From Candidatus Parcubacteria bacterium (lineage in GTDB: Bacteria; Patescibacteriota; Microgenomatia; Levybacterales; GWA1-39-11), in assembly GCA_003599595.1 (NCBI GenBank), contig QZIP01000011.1, positions 2,638 to 66,637 of the forward strand: a DNA stretch of 64,000 nt. The letters run 5' to 3'. Each line of letters begins with the position of its first letter. The stretch's first letter is position 1. The notes under the pieces were generated by a model. That model was not told the origin of the DNA and searched no databases. It saw nothing but the letters and a program-made list of their open reading frames with translations. Positions 10,677 through 33,795 of the stretch are shown in pieces. Made by a program: the position numbers and the translations under genes.

Positions 10677-10693
10677 GCATAAAATCCGATAAA

Positions 10694-10870
10694 AAATTTC
10701 TAATTTCAAACAGCCATTTTAAAGTTCAAAGTGCACCCGCCGCGCGAAGCGGGAAGTTCAAAGTTGCAGTTTAAAGTTTATAGTTGTAAATAATTTTGAA
10801 CTATTAACTGCAATTTTGCATTTTTAATCCGATCGAATCGGATTTTAATTTTGAACTTTGAATTGAAACA
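10694..10870. repeat. Composite intergenic repeat: GC hairpin CCCGCTTCGCGCGGCGGGTGCACTTTGAAC, TTTGAACTTT units and palindrome AATCCGATCGAATCGGATT
   Basis: The reverse complement of 10730-10790 matches 53028-53080 (TCCCGCTTCGCG.GGCG.GTGCACTTTGA). The palindrome AATCCGAT-N3-AATCGGATT recurs at 51076-51096 and, in related form, at 52786-52810. Confidence 0.55.
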
Positions 10871-10872
10871 TT

Positions 10873-11430
10873 ATGCCAATTTACACCAAAAAAGGAGATC
10901 AAGGGCAAACATCACTTCTAAATAAACAAAAGGTCTGGAAAAATTCCCAAAGGACAACTGCTTATGGAACTATCGATGAATTAAATAGTCTACTCGGTGT
11001 CGTAGTTGCCGAAATTGAAAACTCAGAATTCATGATTCATGATTCAGAATTCAAAAATCGGATAATTAGTATCCAAAATGACCTATTTCACATTGGTTCG
11101 TCTCTTGCCAATCCAGACAGTGATAAGGTTGACATCAATCTTTTAGAAAAAGTAAAAGATTTTGAAAAAAATATTGATGAAATGACAGCTCAAATGCCGC
11201 CCCTAAGTGCGTTTATTCTTCCCGGAGGGGGAAGAGTAGGATCTCTTTTTCAGTTTGCCCGCGCCACGGCTCGTCGTGCCGAAAGAGAAGCAGTTGCACT
11301 TTTTCAAAAAGAAAAAATCCAAGAAAATATTCTTGTTTATCTAAACCGCCTTTCAGACTTGCTCTTTACTTTATCCCGCTTTGCAAATTATAAGGAAAAT
11401 AAAAAAGAAGTCATTTGGAAAAAATCCTAG
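10873..11430 (+). CDS. pduO: PduO-type ATP:cob(I)alamin adenosyltransferase
   Basis: MPIYTKKGDQGQTSLLNKQKVWKNSQRTTAYGTIDELNSLLG matches the PduO/MMAB-family N-terminus. Contains a short low-complexity insert (SEFMIHDSEF). Confidence 0.85.
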   Translation: MPIYTKKGDQGQTSLLNKQKVWKNSQRTTAYGTIDELNSLLGVVVAEIENSEFMIHDSEFKNRIISIQNDLFHIGSSLANPDSDKVDINLLEKVKDFEKNIDEMTAQMPPLSAFILPGGGRVGSLFQFARATARRAEREAVALFQKEKIQENILVYLNRLSDLLFTLSRFANYKENKKEVIWKKS

Positions 11431-11479
11431 ACACCTCAACAACTTAAATACTTAGTCGTTGCTAGTAAAGCGATAAAGT

Positions 11480-11529
11480 CACCTCGGATGGTGGCCAAGC
11501 AACGACTTGGACTCCTCCGGGGTGGAGGT
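11480..11529. repeat. GC-rich hairpin repeat, copy A (CACCTCGGATGGTGGCC...GGACTCCTCCGGGGTGGAGG)
   Basis: Shares its ends and core with copies at 13150-13198, 15162-15202, 36505-36650 and 62521-62577. Confidence 0.6.
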
Positions 11530-11604
11530 ATTGAGAATAAACGTTGAGGAAATAAATAACGTAAATTAAGTCTTGAATAAATACTAATATACTAGTATAT
11601 TAGT

Positions 11605-11745
11605 AGCACTGTTGGTTTAACCACTGCCCTGTTGAATAACGGGGTGGGAAGGTTGAAGATTTTGGGAATTAGGTGTAAATCCTAAACTGTGCCGCAGCGG
11701 TAATTTCGATCATCTCGAATAAGTCCGAAGACCGACCAACATTGA
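11605..11745 (+). promoter_or_regulatory. Candidate cobalamin (AdoCbl) riboswitch aptamer with non-canonical element order
   Basis: B12-box-like CCACTGCC...GGGTGGGAAGG (11621-11652). Then GGGAAttaGGTGtAAaTCC...CCGCAGCGGTAA (11664-11702), matching the GGGAA-N3-GGTG-N-AA-N-TCC / CCCGC core consensus with exact spacing. Then GAAGACCGACC (11726-11736). An intrinsic terminator follows. Context: directly downstream of nrdJ and pduO. Confidence 0.35.
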
Positions 11746-11783
11746 TCCCGAGCAGGAAACTGAAAATATATTTGAAGTTTAAC

Positions 11784-11807
11784 CTTCTCGAGAGAGAAGG
11801 TTTTTTT
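11784..11807 (+). terminator. Rho-independent terminator, possible riboswitch expression platform
   Basis: Perfect hairpin CCTTCTC-GAGA-GAGAAGG followed by TTTTTTT. Confidence 0.7.
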
Positions 11808-11955
11808 ATGGTCTAAAAAAAGCGGCGCCTAAATTTTGCTTGTCCCTCATAGCTTTAGCGAAGTGGGAAATTTTGAACTTTTTAAGGGTGTCTCCTTGAG
11901 GAGTATATTCAATTATGCTCAATGCGACGAAAGGTGACTCCCTTATAGAAATAAT

Positions 11956-13110
11956 ATGTCATTTAAAACAGAACAGTCTCATTATCAGACAATAGATGTT
12001 GCAAACAGAAATAGAGAAGTGGTTGGTTCAAGAGCCTGCAATCTAGAATATCTTTCCCATGTTACAGATGAGGAAATTAGAGACGATATTGTTTCTTATC
12101 TTGGGGAATATAGATTTAAACTCCAAAAATTTGATTACAAATTGGCTTTGGTAAAAGATAGTGATGGGAAAGTAGATCTTTGTGATCCACACCGTCTGGA
12201 GTCTATGTCTATTAAGTCAAAAAGAGCTATTGAGGAAAGAAAAGCAGCCGGTTTACCAACTCATAGGGAAGAAGCAGAAGAAACTGGAATAAGTCACTTA
12301 AAAGATCAGCTTAGATTTGCAAGAATAGGAGATAGGATATTTTGGGCAAGTCCTCCAGGGCCCAAAAGTGAAGGTTATGGAAACTATGGATTTTTATATT
12401 CAGGAAAAGTTTCGCAAATAAACTTTAACACTCAGGGAAAAGCTCAATATTTGGACATAGATATGACAGCAATAAGAGTAGAAAATCCTAGCATAGCAGA
12501 ATTTAACCAAGCAATGAGTGCTCTTACGGGAATAAAGTTTGATAACAGAGTTGCAGATGAATTTTTAGAACAGCCTGTGGTAACTAGAAGGTCAGTAAAA
12601 GATAGAGAAGTGGATAGTGTTATTTGTCAAAATTTTGACTTATCAGCTGATCAAAGAGAAAAATTTGATCAGGTTATTGCAGGTCTCGAGTCACAATTGT
12701 TAATAGATGACCTTATAAAAATTATCAGAACAGGATCAAGAGAAGAAAGAATTAAGGCCTTTTACACTCTTGAAAATTATGCCTTAAAGCTTAAGTCAGA
12801 AACAGCTCTCAATGAAAAAGTATTATACTTGAATGATTATAAAAAGAGAAAGTCTTTACAGGAGTTAGCAGTTTACTACAGCTATAGGCCTCCCATAGCT
12901 TTTGGCAGTTGCGGCTCAACAGACTCTAGCAATAGCTTAATTGGCTTAGGTTCTCCAAATGTCTTAAGTACTTTAGTCTTTGGCCCATCAAGCGAAAGAA
13001 AGATTCTTGCTTGTAAATGTCCTTCTTGTGAAAGACAAGTAAACGCTGTAATTGAGAACGGAAAAATAACCTGTCCCAAATGCAGCGCCTCAGCAGACTA
13101 CAATTGCTAA
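11956..13110 (+). CDS. Hypothetical protein with C-terminal double zinc ribbon (CKCPSC...CPKC)
   Basis: 384 aa ORF with no recognisable catalytic domain. Sits downstream of the riboswitch-like element and terminator. Confidence 0.55.
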   Translation: MSFKTEQSHYQTIDVANRNREVVGSRACNLEYLSHVTDEEIRDDIVSYLGEYRFKLQKFDYKLALVKDSDGKVDLCDPHRLESMSIKSKRAIEERKAAGLPTHREEAEETGISHLKDQLRFARIGDRIFWASPPGPKSEGYGNYGFLYSGKVSQINFNTQGKAQYLDIDMTAIRVENPSIAEFNQAMSALTGIKFDNRVADEFLEQPVVTRRSVKDREVDSVICQNFDLSADQREKFDQVIAGLESQLLIDDLIKIIRTGSREERIKAFYTLENYALKLKSETALNEKVLYLNDYKKRKSLQELAVYYSYRPPIAFGSCGSTDSSNSLIGLGSPNVLSTLVFGPSSERKILACKCPSCERQVNAVIENGKITCPKCSASADYNC

Positions 13111-13262: not shown

Positions 13263-13967
13263 ATGTTTAACTTTTTTTTAAATTTTCTTTTTCCCAAAAA
13301 ATGTGTTGGCTGTAAAAAGCTTGGTACATATCTTTGTTCCAATTGTTTTAGTTTTATTTCTTTAAATACCGCATTTGTCTGCCCGGTCTGTACCAGACCC
13401 TCAATTGACGGTTTTACCCATCCCGTTTGCAGAACCAAATACTCTCTTGACGGTCTTATCTCTTGTTATGAGTACAAAGGGGTAGTAAAGAGCCTAATTT
13501 ATAAATTCAAATACAAGCCTTACCTTTCTAGTCTTAAAAATATTACAGGTAAACTTTTTTATGAAGCACTTATTCAGAATGAATTTTTTTATAATATTTT
13601 AAAAGAAAAACCAATCCTAATTCCTATTCCTCTTCATAAAAGCAAAGAACGCTCCCGTGGATATAACCATGCCCAGATTTTGTTAGAACGTATATCAAAA
13701 GATATCAGATTGCCAATTTATCCAAAAATCTTGTTTAGAACAAAAAACACCAAGCCTCAGTTTGGTCTAAAAAAAGAGGAGAGGATAAAAAATATAAGGG
13801 GAGCATTTGCTCTTAATTCAAATAATAAAATAGATCTTCGCGGCAAAACAGTTTTCTTGATAGATGATATTGCTACCACCTGTACCACCTTATCAGAATG
13901 TGCCAATGTCTTAAAAAGAAATGGTGCCAAAAAAGTCCTGGGCCTCACCTTTGCAAGGGAAAGGTAA
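13263..13967 (+). CDS. comFC: ComF-family protein (double zinc ribbon plus phosphoribosyltransferase domain)
   Basis: N-terminal CxxC...CxxC...CPVC and a C-terminal PRTase motif VFLIDDIATTCTTL. Confidence 0.8.
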   Translation: MFNFFLNFLFPKKCVGCKKLGTYLCSNCFSFISLNTAFVCPVCTRPSIDGFTHPVCRTKYSLDGLISCYEYKGVVKSLIYKFKYKPYLSSLKNITGKLFYEALIQNEFFYNILKEKPILIPIPLHKSKERSRGYNHAQILLERISKDIRLPIYPKILFRTKNTKPQFGLKKEERIKNIRGAFALNSNNKIDLRGKTVFLIDDIATTCTTLSECANVLKRNGAKKVLGLTFARER

Positions 13968-14583
13968 ATGCAAATATATTTGAATAGAAATAGTACATAA
14001 AATGTAGCACTTCGCTAAAGCTTCGCGCTACACACTTCTTACCCATTTTAAAAGCGTGGTAACCTGTTAATTGTGGCCTTCCACGCGTAGCTCTTTACAA
14101 AGTAAAGAGCGAAGTGTGGAGATGGCCGAGAATGACCCGGCGTCCAAAAACAGTACCTATAAAATATCTACAAGCGTAGTCAATCTTTAATTGTCGTTTT
14201 AGGCTTAACTGATTGACAAGGGTGTCCTAAAACCAAGGTTAAAAGATAATATAAGGTAACCAGCCTCATATCCTTTTCTCAACTTTGTTTATGCCCGTAC
14301 TGTCCCGTTGAGAAGGGTCAATACAGACAGAGCTTAGTTTACGTAAGCAAGATTGCGTTCGTAAGCTAGGTCACTAGAACTTGGTCTAGCATTTATGTTT
14401 TGAGACTGTTTTATCCGCCTGTTAAGGCGAGATCTCGCTTTCGCGGACGGCTGTGTCTCAAAGCCGGCTTGCAATTTTAAAAGTGCTATCTCTGTCGATG
14501 CAATGCATCCCCAAGACCAATATTATACCAAATTTTACCCTCAAAAGCAAAAAATTCAAGCTATAATTAGCTCAAACCACTCA

Positions 14584-15084
14584 TCAACGTATTATTTCTT
14601 TCAATTCTCTTTCAATATCTCTTTGAATATCTTTTTCTTTCAAAAGCTTTTTCTTTTCAAACTGTTTTTTACCCTTGGAAAGTCCTATCTCAAGCTTAAT
14701 CACACTGTTTGAAACATACATAGAGAGTGGGGTAAGGGTAAAATTTCCCTGACTTATTTTGGATTTTAGAGCAATTATTTCTCTTTTATGTAGAAGCAGC
14801 TTTCTGGTTCTGCTTTCATCATAGCCCTCAATCCTTGAAAATTTATAGGGAAATATCTTAGCATTCACCAGATACGCTTCAGACTCCATTATTTTTACAT
14901 AAGAACCTGTAAGATCTGCATGTCCACCTCTGACAGCCTTAACTTCCGATCCCAAAAGCACAATCCCAGCTTCAATCTTCTCAAATATCTTAAATGAGGC
15001 TGGGGCAGTCTTGTTATGTATCTGAACATTTTTTCTTTGGCTATGCTCATTTTTGTTATTTTCAGTAAAATTATTCATAAGCAT
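14584..15084 (-). CDS. smpB: SsrA-binding protein SmpB
   Basis: ...FEKIEAGIVLLGSEVKAVRGG...YLVNAKIFPY...RTRKLLLHKREI...KGKKQFEKK. The likely start is the internal Met (MLMNNF); the longest ORF extends to 15135. Confidence 0.85.
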   Translation of the reverse strand: MLMNNFTENNKNEHSQRKNVQIHNKTAPASFKIFEKIEAGIVLLGSEVKAVRGGHADLTGSYVKIMESEAYLVNAKIFPYKFSRIEGYDESRTRKLLLHKREIIALKSKISQGNFTLTPLSMYVSNSVIKLEIGLSKGKKQFEKKKLLKEKDIQRDIERELKEIIR

Positions 15085-15161
15085 ATTGTAGTGGGTGCAG
15101 GGAAAGCTTTCAAGTAGGACCCAATCTGTACCCAACTAACTCGAGTTTGAAGCGGTTTAAA

Positions 15162-21251: not shown

Positions 21252-21725
21252 TTAAACAACTATTGGTAGTGAGAATTGATTTTCTTTGTATTGAAGATAA
21301 AGCTTTATAGTTTGACTGTGGTCAAATGCAAATTCTTCAAAATCCGGTAAATCTTTTATTGGGAACCATCTTATTTCTTTAGATTCCTTGTCAGGCTCAC
21401 CGGTTTTTTCTTTTACTTTCACAATAAATTCCAATGCCACATTTTGCCTATTCTCTTCTTTTGGTCTGTTGGGATTAGAATTTATTCTAAAAAGCACTAT
21501 AACTTCTCCATCCCATCCGGTTTCCTCTTTTAATTCTCTCAAAATTCCTTGTTCTACCGTTTCATCTCTGTCCAAAAATCCTCCCGGCAGTCCCCATTTG
21601 CCACCTTCCGGTATGTGCTGGGCACGCTTCTCAAGCAGTAAGCATCCATCTTTTTCAACAATTGCGTGTAAAACAACGTGTCTAAAACTTGTTTTAGCAC
21701 CATTTTCCAATTCACAGGTAATCAT
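21252..21725 (-). CDS. NUDIX hydrolase
   Basis: Nudix box GGKWGLPGGFLDRDETVEQGILRELKEETG. Confidence 0.85.
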   Translation of the reverse strand: MITCELENGAKTSFRHVVLHAIVEKDGCLLLEKRAQHIPEGGKWGLPGGFLDRDETVEQGILRELKEETGWDGEVIVLFRINSNPNRPKEENRQNVALEFIVKVKEKTGEPDKESKEIRWFPIKDLPDFEEFAFDHSQTIKLYLQYKENQFSLPIVV

Positions 21726-22776: not shown

Positions 22777-22802
22777 ACACTTTGTCGTCTACATTTATGT
22801 TG

Positions 22803-22874
22803 TGGGCCTGCTTGGGTTCGAACCAAGGACATCTAACTTATAAGGTTAGCGCTCTGCCACTGAGCTACAGGCCC
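22803..22874 (-). tRNA. tRNA-Ile with anticodon UAU
   Basis: Reverse complement is GGGCCTGTAGCTCAGTGGCAGAGCGCTAACCTTATAAGTTAGATGTCCTTGGTTCGAACCCAAGCAGGCCCA. It forms a cloverleaf. The anticodon stem is CTAAC/GTTAG and the loop CTTATAA gives anticodon TAT. The acceptor and D-arm are Ile-like. CCA is not encoded. Confidence 0.8.
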
Positions 22875-23095
22875 CGGCAAAATGAATTATAGCCTAAATT
22901 AGGCATAGGGGCAATAGAAGTCATTTTATAAAGAAGACACCTTTAAAAATTCAAAAGTCAAAATTCAAAAGTCAAAAGTTAGGTGTCGCAAGCGACTATT
23001 GATAAGCAGTTAAAGAAAACACCCTTTAAAGTTATAAATTATTACTACGTGCTACAAGCCACAAGCTAAAAGCTAGCTTTGAGCTGTGAACTTTT

Positions 23096-25519
23096 TTAGA
23101 TGTTCCCCTTAAATCCTCCACCTTCAGGTCCACCTCTTTCCAATTCCGGTTTTTCTCCAGTATCTGCAAAAACTTCAAAAAGCTTTGATCTTTTTGCAAT
23201 CTCTGCCTCTACCAGATCTTTTGGCCTTCCGCACTTCAGACGTGACAATTCTCTTATAAGTTCTGCTACTCTTGGATTTGCTTGCGAGGTTTCAGAAGAA
23301 ACATCCCGTGTCAAGTCCATAGAAAAGGGTAAAACTGGTTCGCCATTAACTTGTGTTTTGACATACGCATGGTATGCCTCTATGTTTATGAGATCTGCTT
23401 CTGAAAATACGGGTTGAAATTCATGTTGAAGGTAATTTGCATCAGTTACTCCAACCCTGAATGAAACAACTGTTCCCACATTTCCAAAAACCGCATTTTT
23501 AATATCTTCTTCCATCTGTCCAATAAATTGATTTGCAACCGTGAGATTAAGTCTATACTTTCTTGCTTCAGACAGAATTTGAGCAAAATCAGGTGTGGCA
23601 AAATTTTGGAACTCGTCAACATATAAGAAAAAGTCTTTTCTCTTATCTTCAGGAAGATCTTGCCTGGACATTGCTGCCACCAGAATCTTGGGTACTAAAA
23701 TCAATCCCAAGAAGGAAGAATTCTCCTCTCCAATTTTTCCTTTTGCCAAAGAAAAGAGAAGTATTTTCCCTTGGTCCATAACCTCACGCAGGTTAAATGA
23801 GCTTTGGCTCTGCCCAATAATATTTCTCATCATTTTATTTGTTACAAATCTCCCAAACTTAGAAACTATATAATCCATAACTTCAGATTTATGAAAATCA
23901 CTGGTTTGAGCTATCTGATCGGTCCAGTACCTTCTAATAAGGGGATCTTGCACTTTTGGTAAGAGTTCCTGTACAAAAGTTGGATCAGTTAATATTCTCA
24001 TTACTTCAACAAAGGTACTTCCCTCCTCAGACATAACCGTTAGCATAGCATTTCTTACCGCGTGCTCAAACCGTGGTCCTACAATTCCTGTTTGGTGTGG
24101 ATCAAACAATTTCTGCATAAGCCCAAGAATAGAGGCAACCACTAAGTGTTTTTGTTCTTCAGTATGGGCCTCAAGCATATTTAAAGCCATTGGTCTTTCA
24201 GTATCAGATGGGTCAAAAAGGATTACATCCTCAGCTCTTTCAGGAGGAATTAAAGGCAAAAGTTTGTCAATTAAATCATGCGGATCAATAACACATACCC
24301 CATGCCCGTTTTTTATGTCCTGTAAAATCATATCTTTTAAAAATTCTGATTTTCCAACACCGGTTTTTCCAATAATGTACATATGTCTTCTTCTATCTGA
24401 CAATCCTATATGGATAGGCTTACTGATTCCTCTATAAACACTTTTACCAATATAAAGTCCTGAAGTTGGAATATTGGCCGCCGCCGGAGCCGTCCTTGCT
24501 GTAAGCCAGTGGATGTGCGGTGTTTCAACGCTTTTATTAGGAAAATGGAACAACGTTGCAAGTTCTTCAGTGGTTAACAATGATCCCTTACTAAATAAAG
24601 GAATATATCTATATATAAAGTCCGTCATAAACATTCCCTTGAAAAATCTTATCTTCTCTTTTGTAAAAGAGTTATAAGAAGAAAACTGGGTAAATGCGCT
24701 TACCATGTTTGATAGATGGGCATCAGCAGATTCTTTACTGGAAGAAACAACAACAGCTCTCACCCAAGCCTTAAATCCGGGCTTTGTTAACTTCTGGTCA
24801 ATTGCTTCAAGTTCTTTTTGATCTATTGAATATTTTGCTGTTTCAGGATTTGCCTCACGTTTTTTAACCGTTGAAACATAGTTTCTGCCGGTCCCTTTCC
24901 AGTCATCTCCACAAGGTGCAATAAGAATCTGTAAGGCTCCAGCTTCTCCCTGCTGCATTTTTGCCAAAATACTGGTAATGGTAGACAAAGGATCAACAGG
25001 GAGATCTTTATATGTTTTTATTGGAATATAATCAGAAGATTTAAGTTTGAGCCCAGCAAACGCAACTTTGCCTTCTTCATTGAAAATGTTGTATTCTTCA
25101 ACCTCATTTATCTGAGCCCCGGGATAGGATCCGTTAATTTGCTTTTCCACCATATCTTTATATTTATTTGGCACTCCCACATAAAATTTTATATCTCCAG
25201 GTGTTCCTACTATTTCAAAAGAAAGGCTATCTGGCACTTTTAAAAATGAAAAGAACCCGCCTCCGCTTTTAAGAGACATAAGGCTGGTAAACATTTGCTC
25301 GGCTGCATCGATTTTGATTTCATTATCCCGCGGCAAGCTTATCTCAAGAAGGGAAGAGTCTAAAGATTTTATGTGGCGTGCGCGGGCCTTCATCCATAGA
25401 ACAAAAAGATAAAAAAGACCAATGCTTACAACAGCCAAAGCAGAGACAATTAATACTCCAGAAAGTATAACAAAAAGTAAATTTATTAAATTATCAGCAG
25501 AAAACATATTAAGCTGCAT
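23096..25519 (-). CDS. Membrane-anchored VirB4/TraC-family (or VirD4/HerA/FtsK-related) P-loop ATPase
   Basis: N-terminal TM segment (LINLLFVILSGVLIVSALAVVSIGLFYLFVLW), an N-terminal domain of about 300 aa, then a C-terminal ATPase with Walker A YIIGKTGVGKSEF, Walker B LYVDEFQNF and a downstream TVANQ motif. Confidence 0.5.
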   Translation of the reverse strand: MQLNMFSADNLINLLFVILSGVLIVSALAVVSIGLFYLFVLWMKARARHIKSLDSSLLEISLPRDNEIKIDAAEQMFTSLMSLKSGGGFFSFLKVPDSLSFEIVGTPGDIKFYVGVPNKYKDMVEKQINGSYPGAQINEVEEYNIFNEEGKVAFAGLKLKSSDYIPIKTYKDLPVDPLSTITSILAKMQQGEAGALQILIAPCGDDWKGTGRNYVSTVKKREANPETAKYSIDQKELEAIDQKLTKPGFKAWVRAVVVSSSKESADAHLSNMVSAFTQFSSYNSFTKEKIRFFKGMFMTDFIYRYIPLFSKGSLLTTEELATLFHFPNKSVETPHIHWLTARTAPAAANIPTSGLYIGKSVYRGISKPIHIGLSDRRRHMYIIGKTGVGKSEFLKDMILQDIKNGHGVCVIDPHDLIDKLLPLIPPERAEDVILFDPSDTERPMALNMLEAHTEEQKHLVVASILGLMQKLFDPHQTGIVGPRFEHAVRNAMLTVMSEEGSTFVEVMRILTDPTFVQELLPKVQDPLIRRYWTDQIAQTSDFHKSEVMDYIVSKFGRFVTNKMMRNIIGQSQSSFNLREVMDQGKILLFSLAKGKIGEENSSFLGLILVPKILVAAMSRQDLPEDKRKDFFLYVDEFQNFATPDFAQILSEARKYRLNLTVANQFIGQMEEDIKNAVFGNVGTVVSFRVGVTDANYLQHEFQPVFSEADLINIEAYHAYVKTQVNGEPVLPFSMDLTRDVSSETSQANPRVAELIRELSRLKCGRPKDLVEAEIAKRSKLFEVFADTGEKPELERGGPEGGGFKGNI

Positions 25520-25895
25520 GTTTAATCCCTCCTTGTCTTTCTTTTCTTTGTCTCAGCTTTGCAAGAAGAACTTCTTCTGCCCATCGTGAGTCATTCGGTG
25601 ATCCACCACCTCGAGCACTATTTATAGGAGAAATTTCAGGAGTTTCAGCTCCAGCTTTTTGACCTGGAAATTGAATTATGGAAGGAGTTTCATTTGGAAC
25701 AGTATGAGGGCCTGGGATTACCTCTGCTCCTGTTCCTGTCAGGTTATCGTGTGCTTTTTGAGCCTCTATTGCAGGATGCGCTATGCTTACATATCCTTCT
25801 GCTCCTTCCTGAACTGTTGGAACAACAGCTTCTCCTATTGGAGTTGCTGCATTAACTGCTTCAGTCAGTCTGTCCTTTTCTTTTTGTGCGTCCAT
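25509..25895 (-). CDS. Hypothetical protein (128 aa), no TM
   Basis: ORF whose stop overlaps the ATPase start by 11 nt, suggesting translational coupling. Somewhat GC-rich. Confidence 0.35.
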   Translation of the reverse strand: MDAQKEKDRLTEAVNAATPIGEAVVPTVQEGAEGYVSIAHPAIEAQKAHDNLTGTGAEVIPGPHTVPNETPSIIQFPGQKAGAETPEISPINSARGGGSPNDSRWAEEVLLAKLRQRKERQGGIKHAA

Positions 25896-26066
25896 AGATC
25901 AATAATAGCATATTAGAGTATGTCTAGCAATTAAATTTAGCCACAATTTCCTAACAACAAGATAACAAAATAAACAGCTGCAATCATCCGCAAGTAAGTC
26001 CTTGGGTTTTGTCATTGCGATCCCGGGCTAATGAAGTGAGTCGGGGGAGAAGCAATCTCTTTAAGA

Positions 26067-26603
26067 TTATGAAGATAAAAATTCTTTCAGTTTTTCAAGT
26101 GCAATTTTTCTCATGCTTATGTTGTTTTTTTCTTCCCGTGACATTTGCCCAAAGGTTTTTTCAAAACCATCCGGTTGAAAAATTGGATCCCAGCCAAACC
26201 CCAGATCTCCTTCGGGAGCAACTATTTTTCCAAAAATTGCGCCTTCAAAAAAATAAATTTCCTCTCTGTTTTTTGCATATCCTATCACGGTTTTTGCCTC
26301 TGCTTTATCATTTCCAAATTTTTGAGCAATATCGGCAAGCCCTTCACTTCCAATAGTCTTTAAAAACCATTTAATCAAAGGCCCCGGCAACCCATGAAGG
26401 CAGTCCAGATAAAGAGAAGTGTCTTCCACAATAAATTCACCCTTTTTGTGTTTTAAAGCCTCCAGAAGCTTCTCCCGGATAATATTTTTGGGATCTATAT
26501 CTTGAATTTCAGGCAAATCAATATCCAACTGCTCAATCTCCGATAATATCATCTGCCCTTCCTTAAATTTATTTTCATTTCCAGTGATGAAGTAGAGAGG
26601 CAT
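26067..26603 (-). CDS. rdgB: Non-canonical purine NTP pyrophosphatase (RdgB/Ham1 family)
   Basis: [10 protein letters not shown]...[22 protein letters not shown]...[12 protein letters not shown]...[18 protein letters not shown]. Confidence 0.85.
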
Positions 26604-26670
26604 AAAAAATAGTTATTAATTAGGTTTATATCAGATGCCCGCCTTCGTTAAAACTTCGGCGAGGTGAAAG

Positions 26671-26759
26671 CGGAGGAGACAGGATTCGAACCTGCGCGAG
26701 CTTTTGACAGCTCAGGGGATTAGCAATCCCCCGCAATGGACCAACTATGCGACTCCTCC
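26671..26759 (-). tRNA. tRNA-Ser with anticodon GCU
   Basis: Reverse complement is GGAGGAGTCGCATAGTTGGTCCATTGCGGGGGATTGCTAATCCCCTGAGCTGTCAAAAGCTCGCGCAGGTTCGAATCCTGTCTCCTCCG. Anticodon loop is TTGCTAA, with a long variable arm and T-loop TTCGAAT. Confidence 0.85.
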
Positions 26760-26923
26760 AAGGTTCACTTATTATATCAAATACCAAGTCCAGTAAAAAC
26801 CTTAGATGGATATTGCTTACAGAATAGTAAAAGGTCAAATTTTGCCATAAAATTGATCCAGTTTTTATCTAATGAGAATAAGTTTTCTAATAGAAAAAAA
26901 TGGAAAAAGATAAGTAGTTAAAA

Positions 26924-29900
26924 CTATCTACCAAAAAATCTTCCTAATCCTCTGCGTTTTGGTGGTTCTGCAACCATTGATCCCCTATATCCCTCCTGGG
27001 GTCTTGCTGCACCAGGTAAAGGAGGTCCTTCAACAAAAGGCATTTCTTCTGGAGGAACCATTTTTATTTCTCTAGGAATACTGGCCTGGACATTGTATGT
27101 TCTCTCCATAGGATGTTTTATTGGAGCGCCTACTTCAGCTAGATCTCTGTCAGGAGTCAGATCTGGTTTGCCCTCATCTTCAACATATTGAGTTGCCAAT
27201 GAGTGCACTCTTAAAGTTCCAGGTTCGCCATTATATCCTGCAAGCTCCGATGCTTTCAGGATATTTAAATTTTGATCTGCTATCAAAGCAGAAGATATAG
27301 TATTTATGCCTACAATTTCACCGCGGCTATTAATAAGTTCTTGTGGAAGATCTATATTGCCTTGCTCATTTGCTTCTACCATAATCTGTCTTCCATCTTT
27401 TAAGTCAACAACATAACTTAATTTATCCAGAGAAATATTTCCACCATTTATATCTTTCATTCGGTCCAATAATTCATCATTTAAATAGGGCACACCTTCT
27501 AGATGAGACGGAATTGGTTCTCCACCAAGTGTTCCACCATAACTTATACGTATTGTCCACTTACCGTCTGAGCTCATATGTTTATCAAAATAAAGAGTTA
27601 ATTCATTTCCTGCAGGGGCTTCGCTCCCATTATGATTCACCCAGCTTTTCATAACATCTGTAGTGTCTGTAATTTGTCTATCTAAAAGCACACTATGGTC
27701 CTGAGAGAGCAAATGATCAACCGTGCTTACTCCTTCTGTATGTGTTTGTGAAATGTAAAATCCTGCTTCTGCAAGGTCTTGTTTTAGGTTGGTAAATTCC
27801 GGACTTTGTGGGTTAATTCCTGTCTTGGACAAATCAAAAGAAAACATCCCATCATCCTTAATCTTTCCCTCAAGTTGCAGACCAGATTTAGAATCCACAA
27901 TCCCTACTTGGGAAACATCTGCATTGACAGTAACTGTTATGTTTTCCACATTGTAAGTTGCAGTTTCATGTCTTGCTATGGTTCCTTGAATTTTTTCTGC
28001 TAAAGAAGGAAGAGTTGTAGTTTTTTCTACTATTTCACCCACTTTAAAACCTTGGGAAGAGAGCTTTTCACTGGTTACAGCTACACTTGCGGAATCACCG
28101 CTTCGCAGATCAAAATTTCCTTTGGCATCAACTTGGCCTTCAACAATCCCACCATTAACACCTGTTATTTTTACTCCTGTACCGTCAATTATCATATTTA
28201 GATCTTGTAATTTTACCTCGTGAGCTCCTGGGGTATTAACTGCGGTTAAAACTTGACTTGCAGCAGGGTTTTCTGCAACAGTCCAATTAGTTGCAGACCG
28301 TATTTCTTCTGGTAAGTCTTCAAAATGGGGAGTTTCTCCATTTAAGCTAACTACTTTTATAGAACCGTCAGACTGAATTTGAATTTGGCGGCCATCAATA
28401 TCAATATTTCCTTGCCCATCATAAAATGTACCAAGATGACTTGGGGCATCTACAGACAGTATTAAGCCACTTTCAAATCTTAAGCTTCCTCCCGTATCAA
28501 AAATTTTCTGAAGATGCTCTTGTGTCATAAGCTCTGCACCTCTTACTCTATCAACCAAAAATCCAACCATCCTCTCTCCAGGAGTTTGCCCTTCTATTAC
28601 TCCCGCATGTTTTAATCCTTGAGCAACTACTTCACTTGATGCAAGTCCTACAATTGCAGCAGTTGCCCCACCTATTGCTCCCTGTCTATTTATCCAGGCG
28701 TCTTTTGCCTTATTTTGCAACCTATTATGGTCTTCCAATCTCTCCCGCCAAACTCTTCTCATTTCTCTTATGTTTTTATCATTTCTTGAAATCACAATAC
28801 CTTCTCTTTGAAGAATTTCCCTGATCCTGCTCATTGCCCTTGTAAGTTCTATTGTTTCTTTTGATCCTGATCTAATACTTTCAAAACTAACCAAGCCTCT
28901 AGCTCTATCTCCTTGAAACGCTGGGAAATTAAGTCTTACATCTATTTCTGCCCATCTCTCAAGCAAAGAGTTTACATTTCTTTCAACCTCTGCCAATTGT
29001 TCTTTTGTCTCTCCTCCCGTAGCTTTAATTTTTGCACTTAAAACATCTTCCATATTTTTTCTCCTCTCTCCGCTCACAAGAGACTTTCCTCCCCCAGAAA
29101 CAAGCTCCCTAGCGGTAGCCATACTTGGAATAAAATCTGTTGCATCTCTTCTTCTTTTTAATTCTTTTCCTTCTTCTCCTTCTGCTCTTAATTCTTGAGC
29201 TTTAACACCCGCAGCGCTGTGTTCCAGTTCTTTATTTGCTTCATGTGCTGCTCTTTCAGCACTAGACCTTCCCCTCAAGCCGCCCATAGTTGTTGACAGG
29301 GCCAAAGAAAGCTGTAAGGGATCTACTCCAAATTCCACTCCTGCCGTTCTCAATCCTTGAAGTCCAAGGTATGTACCTAATCCCGTTGCAAGAGGGGCGC
29401 CCGCAAAACCTCCTCTTCTCTGTTCAAGGGCAGAAAAGAATCTATCAATCAATCCTATGGGCATCTGAGTTTGCTCGGCAAGTCTTGCCCTAAAAACATT
29501 AACCGGAATTCTAAGTTTACCTGATTCAAGCCTAGGTAAATCTCCATTATGCAAAACCATCCAGGCATTGGTTAAAATATTTGTGGCAAAAAAGTTTGAA
29601 GTTTTTCCAAAATGCTCTTTATCAGCAAAAAATTCTTGTATTTGCGGATCTGAAATATGACCTTGCATATAATCTCCCAATTGGGCTTGAATAAATGCCC
29701 TAATCTCACCTTCATTTTCAGAAGTAATACCGCTTTCATTGTATTTTCTAATAATACGCAAAAGTATCTCTTCATTTACATATCGTGTTAATTCAGTATC
29801 TGCTGGAGTAAGTCCCTTTTCTCCGGCAAGCACCCCTTCTTTCCCCATCATCATTCTCTCAATCACGTGTTTCCCTGATTCTTCCATTGCTTCTGTTTCA

Positions 29901-30985
29901 CCTTTGATTTCTTGACTCTCTTCATCTAAATTTTCCCTTGCTATAATATTGACTTTTCTTAATTCACCAAAATATTTCAATTCATTCACTCTTCTCAAAA
30001 ATCCCTGTACATTTCTTCTAAGCATTTTTGGCCAATTAGCGGGATTCAATGTTGTTCCTACCCGGGCAGCAATTTCAACCGCCAATTTTTCTGGTATATC
30101 TGGATAAATTTCTTTGACTCTGTGTTCCATCTCTTTTTGCTTGGCATAGGCCTCCGCACGCATTCCTGCCTCTTCATCCATAGAACCTATAGTCACTCCG
30201 TAGCGCTTCTCAGCAAAAATTGGTTCAGGATTAGGCTCAGTAATAGTTGACGGTTCAGGAGTTGAAACAGTTTCTGCTGGCTTTTTCATCCCGGGAACAA
30301 CATTGACTGCTTCGCCCACTTGGGGTGGCACCAATACATAATTAGGGCTATATTTAAAAGCTTTTATCCTGCCTTCTGCTGGGTCAAAACTTGTAATTCC
30401 AAGCGTTATGTTGTCACTTATTTTTAACAAAAATGCCTTGTCTTCAAGATCTTGTTGGGTAAAGGGGCCAAGCTGTTCTTTGTCTCCAACGGTTATATAA
30501 AGTCTATCTCCTCTCTGTTGTAAAACCCCTGCCCCAAAAGCTTCTGGATCCATAATGTCTGGTAGGATAGTTACCTTCTCAGGGTCCTTTGGGTCGGCTT
30601 TAAAAGCAAGAGTCTCTGCTTGTTTTCCAAGTCTTAATTTCAAAGGAACAGTCACATGATCTGACCCGTTTAGTTCTTCCCAATTTAAGCTCTCGCCCTT
30701 GCCAGTCCTTCTTTTTGGCTCCGGAGGAATTTTATCAGCACCAACAAACATGTCAGGACTTGTTTTGGAGGGGCGGCTTTCAAGTAATGTCATTAGCCTT
30801 ACCTCGTCTCCCTTATCATGTCCTGCTTGATTTATAGGATCTGATTCTAATTTGCGGAAATCTCCCTCAGAAGTTAAACTTGTATCAGGACCTTTTGAAA
30901 TAATTCTTGAAGACTTAAAGGCGTCTTGTCTTTCAGTCATGCCTTCAGCTTCCGCTTCACTTGTTTCAATTGCTTCATCTACCAT
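26924..30985 (-). CDS. Giant hypothetical protein (1353 aa), charged N-terminus, no signal peptide or TM
   Basis: Uninterrupted 4.06 kb ORF in the same operon as the small acidic protein and the VirB4-family ATPase. Confidence 0.65.
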   Translation of the reverse strand: MVDEAIETSEAEAEGMTERQDAFKSSRIISKGPDTSLTSEGDFRKLESDPINQAGHDKGDEVRLMTLLESRPSKTSPDMFVGADKIPPEPKRRTGKGESLNWEELNGSDHVTVPLKLRLGKQAETLAFKADPKDPEKVTILPDIMDPEAFGAGVLQQRGDRLYITVGDKEQLGPFTQQDLEDKAFLLKISDNITLGITSFDPAEGRIKAFKYSPNYVLVPPQVGEAVNVVPGMKKPAETVSTPEPSTITEPNPEPIFAEKRYGVTIGSMDEEAGMRAEAYAKQKEMEHRVKEIYPDIPEKLAVEIAARVGTTLNPANWPKMLRRNVQGFLRRVNELKYFGELRKVNIIARENLDEESQEIKGETEAMEESGKHVIERMMMGKEGVLAGEKGLTPADTELTRYVNEEILLRIIRKYNESGITSENEGEIRAFIQAQLGDYMQGHISDPQIQEFFADKEHFGKTSNFFATNILTNAWMVLHNGDLPRLESGKLRIPVNVFRARLAEQTQMPIGLIDRFFSALEQRRGGFAGAPLATGLGTYLGLQGLRTAGVEFGVDPLQLSLALSTTMGGLRGRSSAERAAHEANKELEHSAAGVKAQELRAEGEEGKELKRRRDATDFIPSMATARELVSGGGKSLVSGERRKNMEDVLSAKIKATGGETKEQLAEVERNVNSLLERWAEIDVRLNFPAFQGDRARGLVSFESIRSGSKETIELTRAMSRIREILQREGIVISRNDKNIREMRRVWRERLEDHNRLQNKAKDAWINRQGAIGGATAAIVGLASSEVVAQGLKHAGVIEGQTPGERMVGFLVDRVRGAELMTQEHLQKIFDTGGSLRFESGLILSVDAPSHLGTFYDGQGNIDIDGRQIQIQSDGSIKVVSLNGETPHFEDLPEEIRSATNWTVAENPAASQVLTAVNTPGAHEVKLQDLNMIIDGTGVKITGVNGGIVEGQVDAKGNFDLRSGDSASVAVTSEKLSSQGFKVGEIVEKTTTLPSLAEKIQGTIARHETATYNVENITVTVNADVSQVGIVDSKSGLQLEGKIKDDGMFSFDLSKTGINPQSPEFTNLKQDLAEAGFYISQTHTEGVSTVDHLLSQDHSVLLDRQITDTTDVMKSWVNHNGSEAPAGNELTLYFDKHMSSDGKWTIRISYGGTLGGEPIPSHLEGVPYLNDELLDRMKDINGGNISLDKLSYVVDLKDGRQIMVEANEQGNIDLPQELINSRGEIVGINTISSALIADQNLNILKASELAGYNGEPGTLRVHSLATQYVEDEGKPDLTPDRDLAEVGAPIKHPMERTYNVQASIPREIKMVPPEEMPFVEGPPLPGAARPQEGYRGSMVAEPPKRRGLGRFFGR

Positions 30986-30994
30986 AATATATTT

Positions 30995-31357
30995 TTATAA
31001 TGGATTTTGAGTTTCTACTTTATTGTTTTCTTCCATTATTTTCTCTCCTAAGTACAAGCTTCTAAAATCAAGCATTGACTGGGCAAAAATAGCCTCAGCA
31101 TCAGGAATATTTGCTTTTAAATAGGAATTCAACTCTTCCATATTTTTATTTTCTTCAGCCATTTTTGTAAATTCCTCAAGTTTTTCCTGTGGAAGACTTT
31201 CAACAATTTTACTAAGCATATATTTATCAAATCTTTCATAAAGCTCTTGAAGAACCGTTTCTTTCATCAGATCCGTATTGTTCATAAGCCCAGCATCCTC
31301 TATCAAAGACTCAAGAAATAATTTAATATCTACTGGAATTTCTAATTGTTTATCCAT
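30995..31357 (-). CDS. Small acidic hypothetical protein (120 aa)
   Basis: First ORF of the minus-strand operon, separated by 9 nt from the giant gene. An AT-rich promoter-like region lies upstream at 31380-31450. Confidence 0.5.
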   Translation of the reverse strand: MDKQLEIPVDIKLFLESLIEDAGLMNNTDLMKETVLQELYERFDKYMLSKIVESLPQEKLEEFTKMAEENKNMEELNSYLKANIPDAEAIFAQSMLDFRSLYLGEKIMEENNKVETQNPL

Positions 31358-31619
31358 AATTCACCTCCTTAATTTTTAATATATATAAGCATTACATAAG
31401 ATAATGACTATTGTCAATATTAGTAATTTATAAAATTTTCTAATTGATCACAGATTCTCTCTTTAGTATAATCTAGTTTTAAGAAGGAAGAGAGATATTG
31501 CGCTTGCTTACAATACTCACTCTTTCTTTTTTTACAACTCAAAAAGGAGAGAAGCAGAAAATTGCTGTCTGCTTTTACTCTTTTAAAGGTTTTATTCTTG
31601 CACTTTGACAAATCAGGAA

Positions 31620-32925
31620 ATCCAGAAAATATACAGATTTTATTTGTGTATGTCTTCTCACAGTTAGCCTTAAGATAACACGGATGAAACTGATCCGTGA
31701 AATCTTATTTTGTAGGACAGATGTAAGGTCCGCATTACCGTAAAGCATTTAGGCCGCGGGAAGAGAAGGAGTAAATAAATTTGACATTTGAAATTTAAAA
31801 TTTGAAATTGGAAATTTATTTCCTCTCTCCCCGTTGTCTTTTTGCTTACGGTCAATGATGATCTGATTCAGTCCCGCAGGCTGGATGAGGGTGAGAGCAA
31901 AGAGAGCGGAGACGGTGATGCTGATGAGAGGGAGGAAAAATGAAAAGGAAGTCGTTACGCGGCAGTAGACAAAGAAGAGAAAGTAAGCCAACAGTCCAAG
32001 TGAAAGATCCTAACAGGATGGGACATTTGCAAACTGAAGGGCGCACATTTGTTGTCTCTCGGGTGTCTCCAGCCTCCGGGCTGTCCGAACCCTTCAGGGC
32101 ATCACCAGCGTGGGTAATACCGGCTCGTTGATATAGTACCAATAGAGATAAAGGGAGCCCACCCCCTCCCTTGATCCACTCTCGTAAAATCTGGAAGGAG
32201 TTAAGGAGTTGCTCAAAGGTGATATTGTGATAGGACTACAGAGGCTTTTCGAGGGTGTAAAAATAACTCCCGGACAAAGCCAGACTCTATACATGGATCC
32301 ATTCGGAGCATTCATTGATCCTCCTTCAGATCCCACACTTAATCCGCTCAGAGGATTCCAAGTCACCCTTGCTCCTGGTCCCAATCTTCCTCTTGAAGCA
32401 GTAGTGGGCATTCTGCTCGGCCTATGGTCGACGGGGAAGGAGTCAGAAGGTATGCAACCGGTCTGCGTCGATAAAGCAGAGGTAGGAAAGGACGGGCGAG
32501 CTCTTCTTGCGGCTTCAGGATCCACTGGGATCTATTTCATTTATCCCGCGTAATCGTTCAGAAGGAGGATGTGATGACAATCGGCACAAAGATCGGACCA
32601 GGAAGACGAGCTCGGACAGGACCACAATCCCGTCAAGGTCTTCAGATGGAAACAACTGGCGGCCCAGACAAGGTTGACCCCAAAGAATGGCAAAAAGGTT
32701 GCTGGGCTTGCCCGGAGTATCCTTGCAACTTCACCGTGCACAAGTGTCCCCATAGAGGTTGCGTGTTCGGATAGTTCGACAATTTGGAATCTGGATTTCC
32801 ATCATCAAGGCAAGAGGAGCGCTTGGGTTTGTGCGGAGGTCCTATTTGACCTCCAACCTTACTCAAGCGCTTTTCTTTTGGCAAAAAAGTTGCCCCAAAG
32901 CCTAATTTAGGTTAAAATTAAGGGT
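31620..32925. other. GC-rich ORF-free region of about 1.3 kb; candidate large structured RNA or foreign-DNA remnant
   Basis: About 50% GC against about 35% in flanks. Only short overlapping ORFs on both strands. Internal hairpins such as GGAGGTCCTATTTGACCTCC. Lies directly 5' of tRNA-Ser(UGA). Confidence 0.3.
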
Positions 32926-32931
32926 GAAAAT

Positions 32932-33016
32932 GGAGGAATTGAGCAATGGTGGCTCACCAGTCTTGAAAACTGGGGTCCGAAAGGACATGTGGGTTCGAGC
33001 CCCACTTCCTCCGCCA
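32932..33016 (+). tRNA. tRNA-Ser with anticodon UGA
   Basis: GGAGGAATTGAGCAATGGTGGCTCACCAGTCTTGAAAACTGGGGTCCGAAAGGACATGTGGGTTCGAGCCCCACTTCCTCCGCCA. Acceptor GGAGGAA/TTCCTCC, anticodon loop CTTGAAA, long variable arm, and CCA is encoded. Confidence 0.85.
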
Positions 33017-33267
33017 CGTAAAAAATTATTGGTATAATTAATCTATGGATACTCAACAACTTAAACTCGCCTTTTTGTTTTTCCTCAATATTCTTTTTGT
33101 GGGTTTTATCTGGCACTTGGACATCAGTCACAATCTTGACAGGCTAAATATTAACAAAACCCGCGGCATCTTGAAAATCTCTCCGGAAACAGGCTACCGT
33201 ATTTCTCAATATGGATTAATCATCATCTTGTTTTTAATAGATTTGCTAGTAATTTTATTATAGTTTT

Positions 33268-33795
33268 ATGATTATCGTTGTTGGTTCCACCAATCCTGCA
33301 AAATTAAATTCTGTTAGAAAGATCTTTAAAAAATATTTTAGAAATGTGATTGTTAAGGGTGTAAAAGTTGAATCAGGAGTTGCCGAACAACCTTTAAGTG
33401 AAGAAGAAATGTTTGAGGGCGCTCTGTCTCGGGCAAAAAACGCTTTAGAAAAAAATAAAATTGCAGATTTTGGAATTGGAATAGAAGGAGGAGTGCATAG
33501 GTTTGGTTATGGCCTGATGGAAAGAGCCCTAGTGGTTATTGTTGATAGAAAGGGAAATATTGGCATCGGTTCATCTGGTGGAGTGGTCTTGCCTGAAAAG
33601 GTATCCAAAAGAATTGAAAAAGGTGAAAATCTCTCTGTGGTTATAGATGATCTTTTTGGGACAAAAGATATAGGTAAAAGCATTGGCATGTTTGGTTTGT
33701 TTACAAAAGAAGTGGTGACCAGGACAAAGGCCTATGAACACGGTGTTGCCTTTGCTCTCTCAAGATTCCTACACCAAAACTTGTTTGAAAAATAA
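33268..33795 (+). CDS. Inosine/xanthosine triphosphatase (YjjX/DUF84 family)
   Basis: MIIVVGSTNPAKLNSVRKIF...VESGVAEQPLSEEEMFEGALSRAKNA...DFGIGIEGGV resembles YjjX-family NTP phosphatases. Confidence 0.65.
   Translation: MIIVVGSTNPAKLNSVRKIFKKYFRNVIVKGVKVESGVAEQPLSEEEMFEGALSRAKNALEKNKIADFGIGIEGGVHRFGYGLMERALVVIVDRKGNIGIGSSGGVVLPEKVSKRIEKGENLSVVIDDLFGTKDIGKSIGMFGLFTKEVVTRTKAYEHGVAFALSRFLHQNLFEK

Follow-up and report, generated by a model that had tools for sequence, protein, structure and literature searches.

Is the run of genes between a tRNA-Ile gene and a tRNA-Ser gene in a Patescibacteria genome one secretion operon, one integrated element, or neither? The question arises from a 64,000-nt stretch of contig QZIP01000011.1 of a Candidatus Parcubacteria bacterium (Levybacterales), hereafter the window, to which all coordinates refer. 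An earlier note on this DNA had described positions 22803 to 33016 as a single, tightly packed operon resembling a type IV secretion system (T4SS), composed of a small acidic protein, a giant protein, tRNA-Ser(GCU), RdgB, a 128-aa open reading frame (ORF) and a membrane-anchored ATPase, and bracketed by tRNA genes. The ORFs, tRNA genes and ATPase motifs were all recovered at the same coordinates, as were the 9-nt gap between the 120-aa and 1353-aa ORFs and the overlap of the 128-aa ORF with the next start. The grouping of these parts is another matter. We consider it probable that the region comprises two independent T4SS-related gene pairs together with housekeeping genes, rather than an operon or a mobile element; that the 10-kb stretch is composite in its anatomy we hold with good confidence. 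The first pair would be the small ORF orf128 and the ATPase gene, the latter encoding the orphan coupling protein of this lineage, of the monoderm VirD4/TraD type and framed by tRNA genes. The second would be a gene for a DUF5663 protein and the gene for the giant protein, an accessory module that elsewhere lies between a pilin array and the genes PrgI-TrsD-VirB4 and that in the window appears to have been detached into a hypervariable slot between two tRNA-Ser genes.

The ATPase gene (23096-25519, minus strand; 807 aa) has over 6,400 homologues, and the best 120 of these encode proteins of about 800 aa that are 68-79% identical to its product. It was present in 80 of 80 species-level genome loci at 66-79% identity, most of them from Levybacteria and Gottesmanbacteria, and is a conserved chromosomal core gene of the lineage. 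In none of these 80 does a giant, DUF5663, rdgB or def gene adjoin the ATPase. The absence of the first three beside it contradicts the proposed single operon, as do the gaps of 164, 66, 171 and 221 nt and the tRNA gene that interrupt the series in the window.

The gene that does accompany the ATPase is a small ORF. In about 50 loci an ORF of about 150 aa precedes the ATPase gene with a 4-bp overlap, and genes for DUF5667, NrdR, a class II ribonucleotide reductase (RNR) and a cobalamin adenosyltransferase are found further upstream; a profile hidden Markov model (HMM) of the small ORF adds 13 more loci across lineages. In the window this position is occupied by orf128 (25509-25895, minus strand; 128 aa), which overlaps the ATPase start by 11 nt and is matched, at E 6.6e-9, by an HMM built from the small ORFs of close relatives. 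The Shine-Dalgarno (SD) sequence of the ATPase gene, AAGGAGGG, is located within the 3' end of orf128. Thus orf128 is the local member of the small-ORF family that precedes the ATPase, and on these sequence features it is predicted to be translationally coupled to it. The pair has its own promoter-like site at 25930-25902. The orf128 start lies only about 7 nt past a TG-extended -10 element (TTGCTA-17-TATTAT; 25895-25930), which suggests that the orf128-ATPase transcript is leaderless or nearly so.

The tRNA genes likewise belong to the surroundings of the ATPase. All 13 close relatives scanned have tRNA-Ser(UGA) upstream of the ATPase gene and tRNA-Ile(UAU) just downstream of it, and tRNA-Ser(GCU) is also found upstream in 12 of the 13. 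The corresponding genes in the window, each identified by both ARAGORN and Rfam, are tRNA-Ser(UGA) at 32932-33016 (plus strand), tRNA-Ser(GCU) at 26670-26759 (minus strand) and tRNA-Ile(UAU) at 22802-22874 (minus strand), directly downstream of the ATPase gene. Because they are conserved around the ATPase in close relatives, we interpret these tRNA genes as landmarks rather than attachment sites. The UAU anticodon of the tRNA-Ile is an uncommon one in bacteria, and the gene that bears it comes directly after that of the coupling protein both in the window and in each of the 13 relatives (among L001-L022, at about 12.4-12.7 kb). A SpoIID gene is found downstream of the ATPase in 21 loci, nearly all of them among the closest 22, and the same arrangement is seen in the window.

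Variation is concentrated between the two tRNA-Ser genes. In six relatives this slot measures 1-128 nt and in six others it contains unrelated cargo of 0.9-2.2 kb; in the window it is 6.2 kb long and holds a GC-rich block, the DUF5663 gene and the giant gene. The presence/absence polymorphism is restricted to this inner 6.2 kb and does not include the ATPase. The rdgB gene (26067-26603, minus strand) represents another local insertion, this one between tRNA-Ser(GCU) and orf128, and is missing from that position in 80 of 80 relatives. Its 178-aa product is a Ham1/RdgB non-canonical NTP pyrophosphatase (Pfam Ham1p_like, 9.5e-45), as the earlier note had called it; it is a housekeeping enzyme and a member of neither module.

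These comparisons bear directly on the proposal of a tRNA-bracketed integrated element, or of a self-contained T4SS-like effector-delivery operon, extending from DUF5663 through the ATPase. All the genes are on one strand with tRNAs on both sides, a 30-nt inverted repeat specific to this genome lies just inside both flanking tRNAs, and the 6.2-kb part (GC block, DUF5663 and giant) is missing from relatives, as such an element would have it. The locus is thus not perfectly conserved, perfect conservation being what the earlier note had held would argue against mobility. However, the relatives keep the ATPase and the tRNAs together without the remaining genes. No integrase, recombinase, relaxase or transposase domain was found by Pfam among the ORFs scanned at 22.8-33 kb, and a repeat search detected no direct repeats derived from tRNA 3' ends (attL/attR), its sole notable repeat being the inverted pair. 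Each arm of that pair coincides with a promoter-like site of an outward-facing tRNA, and orf128-ATPase has a separate promoter-like site. Composition over the ATPase and giant genes is within the normal range of the window, and the GC block alone deviates. A XerC-like gene is found near the ATPase in relatives (46 ORFs in 45 of them) and is missing in the window. We conclude that the bracketed element or operon has already been largely refuted by synteny, and we regard it as very improbable.

What kind of motor, then, is the conserved ATPase? It carries the motifs GKTGVGKS (residues 384-391), DEFQNF (635-640) and ANQ (662-664). Three Pfam models of coupling proteins match above cut-off: T4SS-DNA_transf (24.3 against 20.1 bits), TrwB_AAD_bind (23.8 against 20.5) and TraG-D_C (23.4 against 22). 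DUF87 is above its cut-off as well and is the top Pfam match, but spans only residues 368-415. None of the VirB4-specific models (CagE_TrbE_VirB, AAA_10, P-loop_TraG and TraC-F) was among the Pfam matches at E <= 0.01, whereas a real VirB4 from Patescibacteria matches P-loop_TraG at 4.9e-31. The best NCBIfam matches are TraD models and the CD1115 VirD4-like model, the TraD match of 3.7e-14 lying far under the equivalog cut-off; NCBIfam VirB4 models touch the P-loop alone (residues ~376-417, E 1e-4 to 0.08). When a profile of 33 sequences of the ATPase family was run against the sequences in the PDB, only DotL and TrwB were found.

A hydrophobic stretch covers residues 5-46 (Kyte-Doolittle 2.81), and the AlphaFold2 model (predicted local distance difference test, pLDDT, 72.6) places a long N-terminal transmembrane helix at 8-53. 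An N-domain of alpha/beta type follows (55-325), and then the P-loop domain, into which an all-alpha segment is inserted (454-582). The N-domain corresponds to Pfam PF26449 (DUF8128).

A VirB4-type motor, or one of the HerA/FtsK type, would be the alternative to a coupling protein, and part of the structural evidence speaks for it and against our assignment. The best Foldseek E-values (3e-12) are to full-length TrwK/VirB4 over ~840-910 aligned columns, so that a VirB4-like layout of the N-domain is possible; HerA structures are found at about 1e-5, the top Pfam match is DUF87/HerA, and the ATPase is 24.6% identical over 338 aa to a VirB4 from Patescibacteria. With hhalign, moreover, the ATPase half is homologous to the ATPase half of Patescibacteria VirB4 with 92% probability. 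Yet the TM-score to VirB4 is only 0.27, compared with 0.46-0.57 for TrwB (E ~3e-6) and 0.51 for DotL (E 1e-8) when the ATPase half is aligned and scores are normalized to the target, and HerA ranks below VirB4, DotL and TrwB. The N-domain matches VirB4-N and TrsD in hhalign with a probability below 1%, the P-loop_TraG, AAA_10 and CagE models that detect a genuine VirB4 miss the ATPase, and the FtsK_SpoIIIE model scores 15.9 bits, under its cut-off of 24. VirB4 also lacks a membrane helix, and the ATPase has one.

Plasmid homologues point the same way. A search of all PLSDB plasmids recovered full-length relatives of the ATPase in Bacillus and haloarchaea, with more matches in Streptomyces, Clostridium and Sulfolobus; these are annotated as DUF87, TraM-recognition or conjugative DNA transfer proteins. 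In two Bacillus plasmids (NZ_OX419581 and NZ_CP154917) the homologue lies directly upstream of a gene of the replication-relaxation family, a candidate relaxase, and in both a separate ATPase of about 850 aa comes after TcpD/TcpE, the position of VirB4. Because of this separate ATPase, the homologue itself can be placed in the coupling-protein position. No relaxase or VirB4 gene was found beside the ATPase in the window by Pfam scan or tblastn, and tblastn of the window detected no PrgI/VirB3 gene near it, its upstream partner being an unrelated small ORF. Taken together, the evidence identifies the 807-aa protein as a VirD4/TraD-like ATPase of the coupling-protein type, anchored by a single N-terminal membrane helix, and not as VirB4; a VirB4-type or HerA/FtsK-type motor is improbable. 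The earlier description of a VirB4/TraC-like ATPase holds at the level of the T4SS ATPase superfamily but fails on VirB4 identity, as the profiles lead to TraD, VirD4, TrwB and DotL.

The second pair has a very different distribution. The giant gene (26924-30985, minus strand; 1353 aa) starts 9 nt past the stop of the DUF5663 gene (30995-31357, minus strand; 120 aa; Pfam DUF5663, 2.1e-7). The product of the latter is acidic, as had been proposed, with 26 D+E against 13 K+R residues. Homologues of the giant protein were difficult to find: an indexed search with the single sequence gave none and one with a 22-sequence profile gave one, so that an exhaustive HMMER search was needed. This search, of 1.84 billion representative sequences, recovered 46 homologues with identities of 21-43%; 39 reach 1,000 aa or more and the largest has 2,370 aa, and those with names or sources all come from Patescibacteria. 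The giant protein thus belongs to a rare and fast-evolving family. Some homologues carry C-terminal GT9, GT2, PP2C or ATP-grasp domains.

The giant protein of the window has no Pfam or NCBIfam match. It has no signal peptide, as the earlier note had already observed, and no convincing transmembrane segment (maximum Kyte-Doolittle value 1.54). In the AlphaFold2 model (pLDDT 73.7, with 364 residues at 90 or above) an acidic, disordered N-terminus is predicted to lead into a confidently modeled helical core and a confidently modeled beta-rich C-terminal region, which is Pro-rich and ends in a basic tail. The model showed no significant fold match in the PDB or in the viral structures of BFVD, and the family profile had no match among PDB sequences.

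In 9 of 10 contexts the giant homologue is preceded, at a distance of 1-6 nt, by a small ORF. Eight of these nine ORFs match Pfam DUF5663; the ninth, in locus L082, has no such match but is 57% identical to the window protein. The tenth context, L088, has its DUF5663 gene 5.7 kb upstream of the giant. The DUF5663 proteins are better conserved (26-56% identity) than the giant proteins (21-31%). In the window the ATG of the DUF5663 gene is preceded by a strong SD, AAGGAGGTG; the giant gene has none, and this absence, with the start only 9 nt after the DUF5663 stop, suggests that the giant is translationally coupled to DUF5663. A gene of ~190-240 aa is usually found divergent from DUF5663, and the three copies that we read carry an HExxH motif and look membrane-embedded. 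DUF5663 and giant are a conserved pair, separate from the pair formed by orf128 and the ATPase.

Does this pair have anything to do with secretion? In eight Patescibacteria contigs (L081, L082, L085, L087, L090, L094, L130 and L154) the module lies inside a chromosomal T4SS cluster; L094, L130 and L154 are loci anchored on a gene of the Trans_reg_C family and had not been selected for the giant. In the five contigs with gene calls the giant comes directly after a small ORF of the DUF5663 type, and tblastn detects DUF5663 similarity just upstream in the other three. The module comes right after an array of VirB2-like pilin genes in seven of the eight (no pilins were called in L082) and ahead of PrgI-TrsD-VirB4 in the five that extend that far. 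The order in L081, L082, L085, L087 and L090 is Trans_reg_C, pilins, the HExxH gene where present, DUF5663, giant, further genes and PrgI, and past PrgI, where the contig extends, TraC-like/TrsD, VirB4 and an M23 peptidase. The cluster is closed by dnaN in L081, L085 and L087, with dnaA also in L087. Genes for 23S_rRNA_IVP/bAvd-like four-helix proteins are also found in these T4SS clusters (L081 4159-6398, L085 3828-7112, L087 7195-7578 and L090 5627-7782), between pilin genes in L085 and L087 and upstream of the pilin array, flanking Trans_reg_C, in L081 and L090; tblastn matches to them occur in 13 of 30 Trans_reg_C loci. The bAvd protein is an accessory protein of diversity-generating retroelements, and no reverse transcriptase was seen in the loci that bear these genes.

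The window itself contains what appears to be the edge of such a cluster. At its left end lie the N-terminal 165 codons of a Trans_reg_C-family gene (1-495, minus strand), which continues beyond the window and in Patescibacteria marks where T4SS clusters begin, followed by a 1108-aa ORF (704-4030, plus strand) and a 679-aa ORF (4151-6190, minus strand), both belonging to the conserved left flank of the T4SS cluster and neither with a Pfam match. The Trans_reg_C protein is 54% identical to that of the L081 cluster. Related Trans_reg_C genes were found at 67 loci, 30 of which span at least 9 kb; in these 30 a pilin array comes next in 22, and the same 1108-aa and 679-aa genes flank Trans_reg_C, in mirrored order, in 28-29. 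Since the three genes of the window mirror the left flank of the cluster in these relatives, the T4SS cluster of this genome probably begins at the left edge of the window, some 26 kb from the module.

On this evidence we think a functional link between the giant module and a T4SS reasonably probable. Several observations weigh against it, or against reading much into the arrangement in the window. In the 30 Trans_reg_C-anchored loci, pilins run straight into PrgI-TrsD-VirB4 in 11 and the module is inserted there in 3; because of these numbers we regard the module as an optional accessory of the T4SS. Three contigs (L088, L089 and P0133) have the module at a distance from VirB4. The giant lies near a coupling protein in 2 of ~13 contexts, and 0 of the 80 coupling-protein loci have a giant, so that its adjacency to the ATPase in the window, where the DUF5663-giant pair is 1.4 kb from the coupling protein and the GC block takes the place of the HExxH gene, may be accidental. 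No PrgI, TrsD, VirB4 or pilin gene was detected in the window by tblastn with the genes of three clusters. Finally, the GT9, LytR_cpsA_psr, PP2C and kinase domains that neighbor or are fused to giant homologues fit a role in the envelope or signaling of the cell itself equally well.

This last point is the basis of a rival explanation, in which the DUF5663/giant module is a scaffold of the cell's own envelope or signaling, has no tie to the T4SS, and owes its position to a permissive hotspot near the origin of replication. Fusion to, or location beside, GT9/GT2, LytR_cpsA_psr, PP2C, ATP-grasp and kinases agrees with this explanation, as do the optional presence of the module in T4SS clusters and its occurrence away from VirB4 in the three contigs just named; a hotspot is suggested by the position of T4SS clusters next to dnaN/dnaA, in our contigs and in those surveyed previously (PMC12102498). 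The module is not scattered, however, as insertion into a merely permissive region would have it: it follows the pilin array directly in 7 of the 8 contigs in which it is embedded in a T4SS cluster, and it is upstream of PrgI in all 5 that are long enough. A role in the envelope would require export, yet the giant has neither signal peptide nor transmembrane segment. The module also stands beside a coupling protein in two genomes, that of the window and that of the P0133 contig, where a DUF8128 ATPase, accompanied by its small ORF, lies 3 kb away. We consider the scaffold explanation unlikely, although it deserves to be taken seriously.

If, as we favor, the module is linked to a T4SS, the giant, lacking a signal for the Sec pathway, would be made together with DUF5663 acting as its chaperone or adaptor; the complex would be handled by the T4SS, possibly by way of the coupling protein, and the giant would serve as exported cargo or as a surface-exposed accessory in contact with the host. 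Features of the pair that resemble those of cargo are the lack of signal peptide and transmembrane segment, the acidic partner, the basic C-terminal tail and the variable C-terminal enzyme domains of the homologues. Small acidic chaperones or adaptors are paired with T4SS substrates in several known systems, including VirE1-VirE2 of Agrobacterium, the IcmS/IcmW adaptors and CagF-CagA. By analogy, the window pair has a small acidic protein encoded directly upstream of a large, signal-less, T4SS-linked protein with a basic C-tail. It differs in that no similarity of sequence or fold to these systems was found, and in that the conserved part of the giant is a large core, not a short delivery signal on a variable body. 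That the giant is itself a translocated substrate is a tentative suggestion, which we would sooner doubt than assert. The earlier note's idea of the giant as a substrate, effector or surface component thus remains a live reading, as the module is T4SS-linked in other Patescibacteria, but the VirB4 operon in which the note had set it does not stand.

The remaining occupant of the slot, the GC-rich block (31850-32900, plus strand), had also been noticed before. It is real, with 48-55% GC against a background of 35%, and is the sole such block in the 64 kb, but it is no empty spacer: three tandem, SD-preceded small ORFs are present on the plus strand, at 31940-32131 (63 aa), 32209-32553 (114 aa) and 32574-32774 (66 aa, rich in Cys), and at about 32809-32880 there is a terminator-like hairpin. 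None of these ORFs has a Pfam match, and no homologue of the block was found by blastn or tblastn in 159 loci, plasmids, phages or viral contigs, so that an origin from plasmid, phage or viral DNA was rejected. The block showed no tblastn similarity to the HExxH gene, of which it might have been a decayed copy, or to the slot cargo of relatives. A large structured RNA was rejected less firmly: there is no Rfam match at the gathering threshold or at E <= 1, and folding z-scores of the core are about -0.2 to +1.3 on both strands, compared with -5 to -6.6 for a tmRNA control. L092 and L093 have a GC-rich island at the corresponding T4SS slot, which proved to be an unrelated gene for a low-complexity protein. 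Just outside the block, at 31749-31841, is an AT-rich hairpin of ~90 nt with GAAATTT-like repeats and a weak, sub-threshold Rfam match to MIR774 (E 0.028); L048, L049, L058 and L061 have low-complexity repeats of a similar kind.

The two arms of the inverted repeat, 30 nt each, lie at 22885-22914, overlapping the promoter-like sequence TTGCCC-17-TATAAT of tRNA-Ile, and at 32890-32919, overlapping TTGCCC-17-TAAAAT of tRNA-Ser(UGA). The shared core, TTGCCCC-N3-GCCTAATTTAGG, contains the palindrome GCCTAA-T-TTAGGC. The repeat is situated between the -35 and -10 hexamers of the promoter-like sites of both outward-facing flanking tRNAs, and it matches twice in the window where 0.03 matches are expected. 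It is missing upstream of the orthologous tRNAs in nine relatives and is specific to the window genome, and the idea that it serves the lineage as a general tRNA promoter was therefore rejected. A duplicated promoter or operator, or a recombination site, could account for it. Neither the GC block nor the inverted repeat is explained by the composite reading that we favor.

Outside these features, the region is surrounded by ordinary genes, with def and a NUDIX gene on one side and NTPase_I-T and FtsJ on the other. Between tRNA-Ser(UGA) and NTPase_I-T is a 72-aa ORF (33045-33263) with two predicted transmembrane segments and no family match. Three nucleotide-pool sanitizing enzymes, NUDIX (21252-21725), RdgB/Ham1 (at the position given above) and NTPase_I-T (33268-33795), are encoded within 12 kb around the ATPase. 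A second group of genes, at 6476-13110, encodes DUF5667, NrdR, the class II (B12-dependent) RNR, a PduO-type cobalamin adenosyltransferase and a 384-aa ORF without assigned function, together with a cobalamin riboswitch (11596-11754), detected with Rfam. This DUF5667-RNR block, which in about 50 relatives is directly upstream of the small ORF and the ATPase, is 10-16 kb away and on the other strand in the lineage of the window. A ComFC-like gene (13263-13967) is, like the RNR genes, near the ATPase by adjacency alone. A role of the ATPase in DNA uptake or nucleotide salvage, for which its neighbors nrdJ/nrdR, rdgB, NTPase_I-T, NUDIX and comFC could be cited, was rejected as resting on nothing but this adjacency; in S. 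epibionticum, loss of comEC was without effect on viability (PMC12857230). The window also encodes a tmRNA (14114-14512, minus strand; Rfam) that adjoins SmpB (14584-15135, minus strand), an ordinary arrangement kept in close relatives such as L012, L017 and L019.

How much of this was known? The class of the ATPase and the Patescibacteria T4SS have both been described (PMC12102498, PMC12857230). A survey of the phylum counted 5,713 homologues of VirD4-type coupling proteins, only 148 of them near virB4, and suggested exaptation for other functions; orphans are the rule among these proteins in Patescibacteria (PMC12102498). The ATPase of the window resembles these orphan coupling proteins in its VirD4/TraD-like P-loop, its chromosomal location far from virB4, the lack of a nearby relaxase, and its wide and conserved distribution; its DUF8128 N-domain, overlapping small ORF and tRNA framing were not described there. 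Its similarity to the Bacillus plasmid coupling proteins is full-length and includes the N-domain (80-87% coverage, 24-25% identity). With the monoderm plasmid proteins and with TrwB and DotL it shares, as modeled, the anchoring in the membrane and the all-alpha insertion in the P-loop domain. It differs from the plasmid proteins in being chromosomal and conserved, with no relaxase or conjugation genes beside it, and from TrwB and DotL in its N-domain of ~270 aa, which they lack. The Patescibacteria T4SS cluster is MPF-FATA-like, with a VirB2-like pilin array, PrgI/VirB3, TrsD, VirB4 and a peptidoglycan hydrolase, and lies near dnaN/dnaA. The window has the left-flank genes of this cluster, inside which giant homologues occur in eight contigs, but lacks its core genes and carries the module detached about 26 kb from the flank.

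The module, in contrast, appears to be undescribed as a T4SS accessory, an interpretation suggested by its gene neighborhood in the eight contigs. Full-text literature searches for DUF5663 or DUF8128 returned no paper, and the 2025 survey mentions neither DUF5663 nor the giant protein and reports no adhesins. We suggest, as a speculation, that DUF5663 and giant, usually with the divergent HExxH gene, are a new accessory of the Patescibacteria T4SS in which the giant is the first candidate for a cargo or surface component, with DUF5663 as its escort and the DUF8128 coupling protein, its neighbor in the window, as its recruiter; the enzyme domains that vary at the C-terminus in other lineages (glycosyltransferase, PP2C, ATP-grasp) might then be interchangeable payloads that act on the host.

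In the one member of the Patescibacteria that is genetically tractable, epibiotic life requires the T4SS, and for this system the substrate is not known and neither adhesins nor effectors have been found (PMC12102498, PMC12857230). A coupling-protein homologue, on the other hand, was not essential for epibiotic growth of S. epibionticum (cited in PMC12102498), an observation that counts against the reading favored here. Should the giant module prove unrelated to secretion, the locus would be an ordinary one. As it stands, the DUF5663/giant pair offers a testable candidate for a cargo or host-contact component in Microgenomatia, and the conserved ATPase with its coupled small partner bears on the role of orphan coupling proteins, of which these bacteria have thousands.

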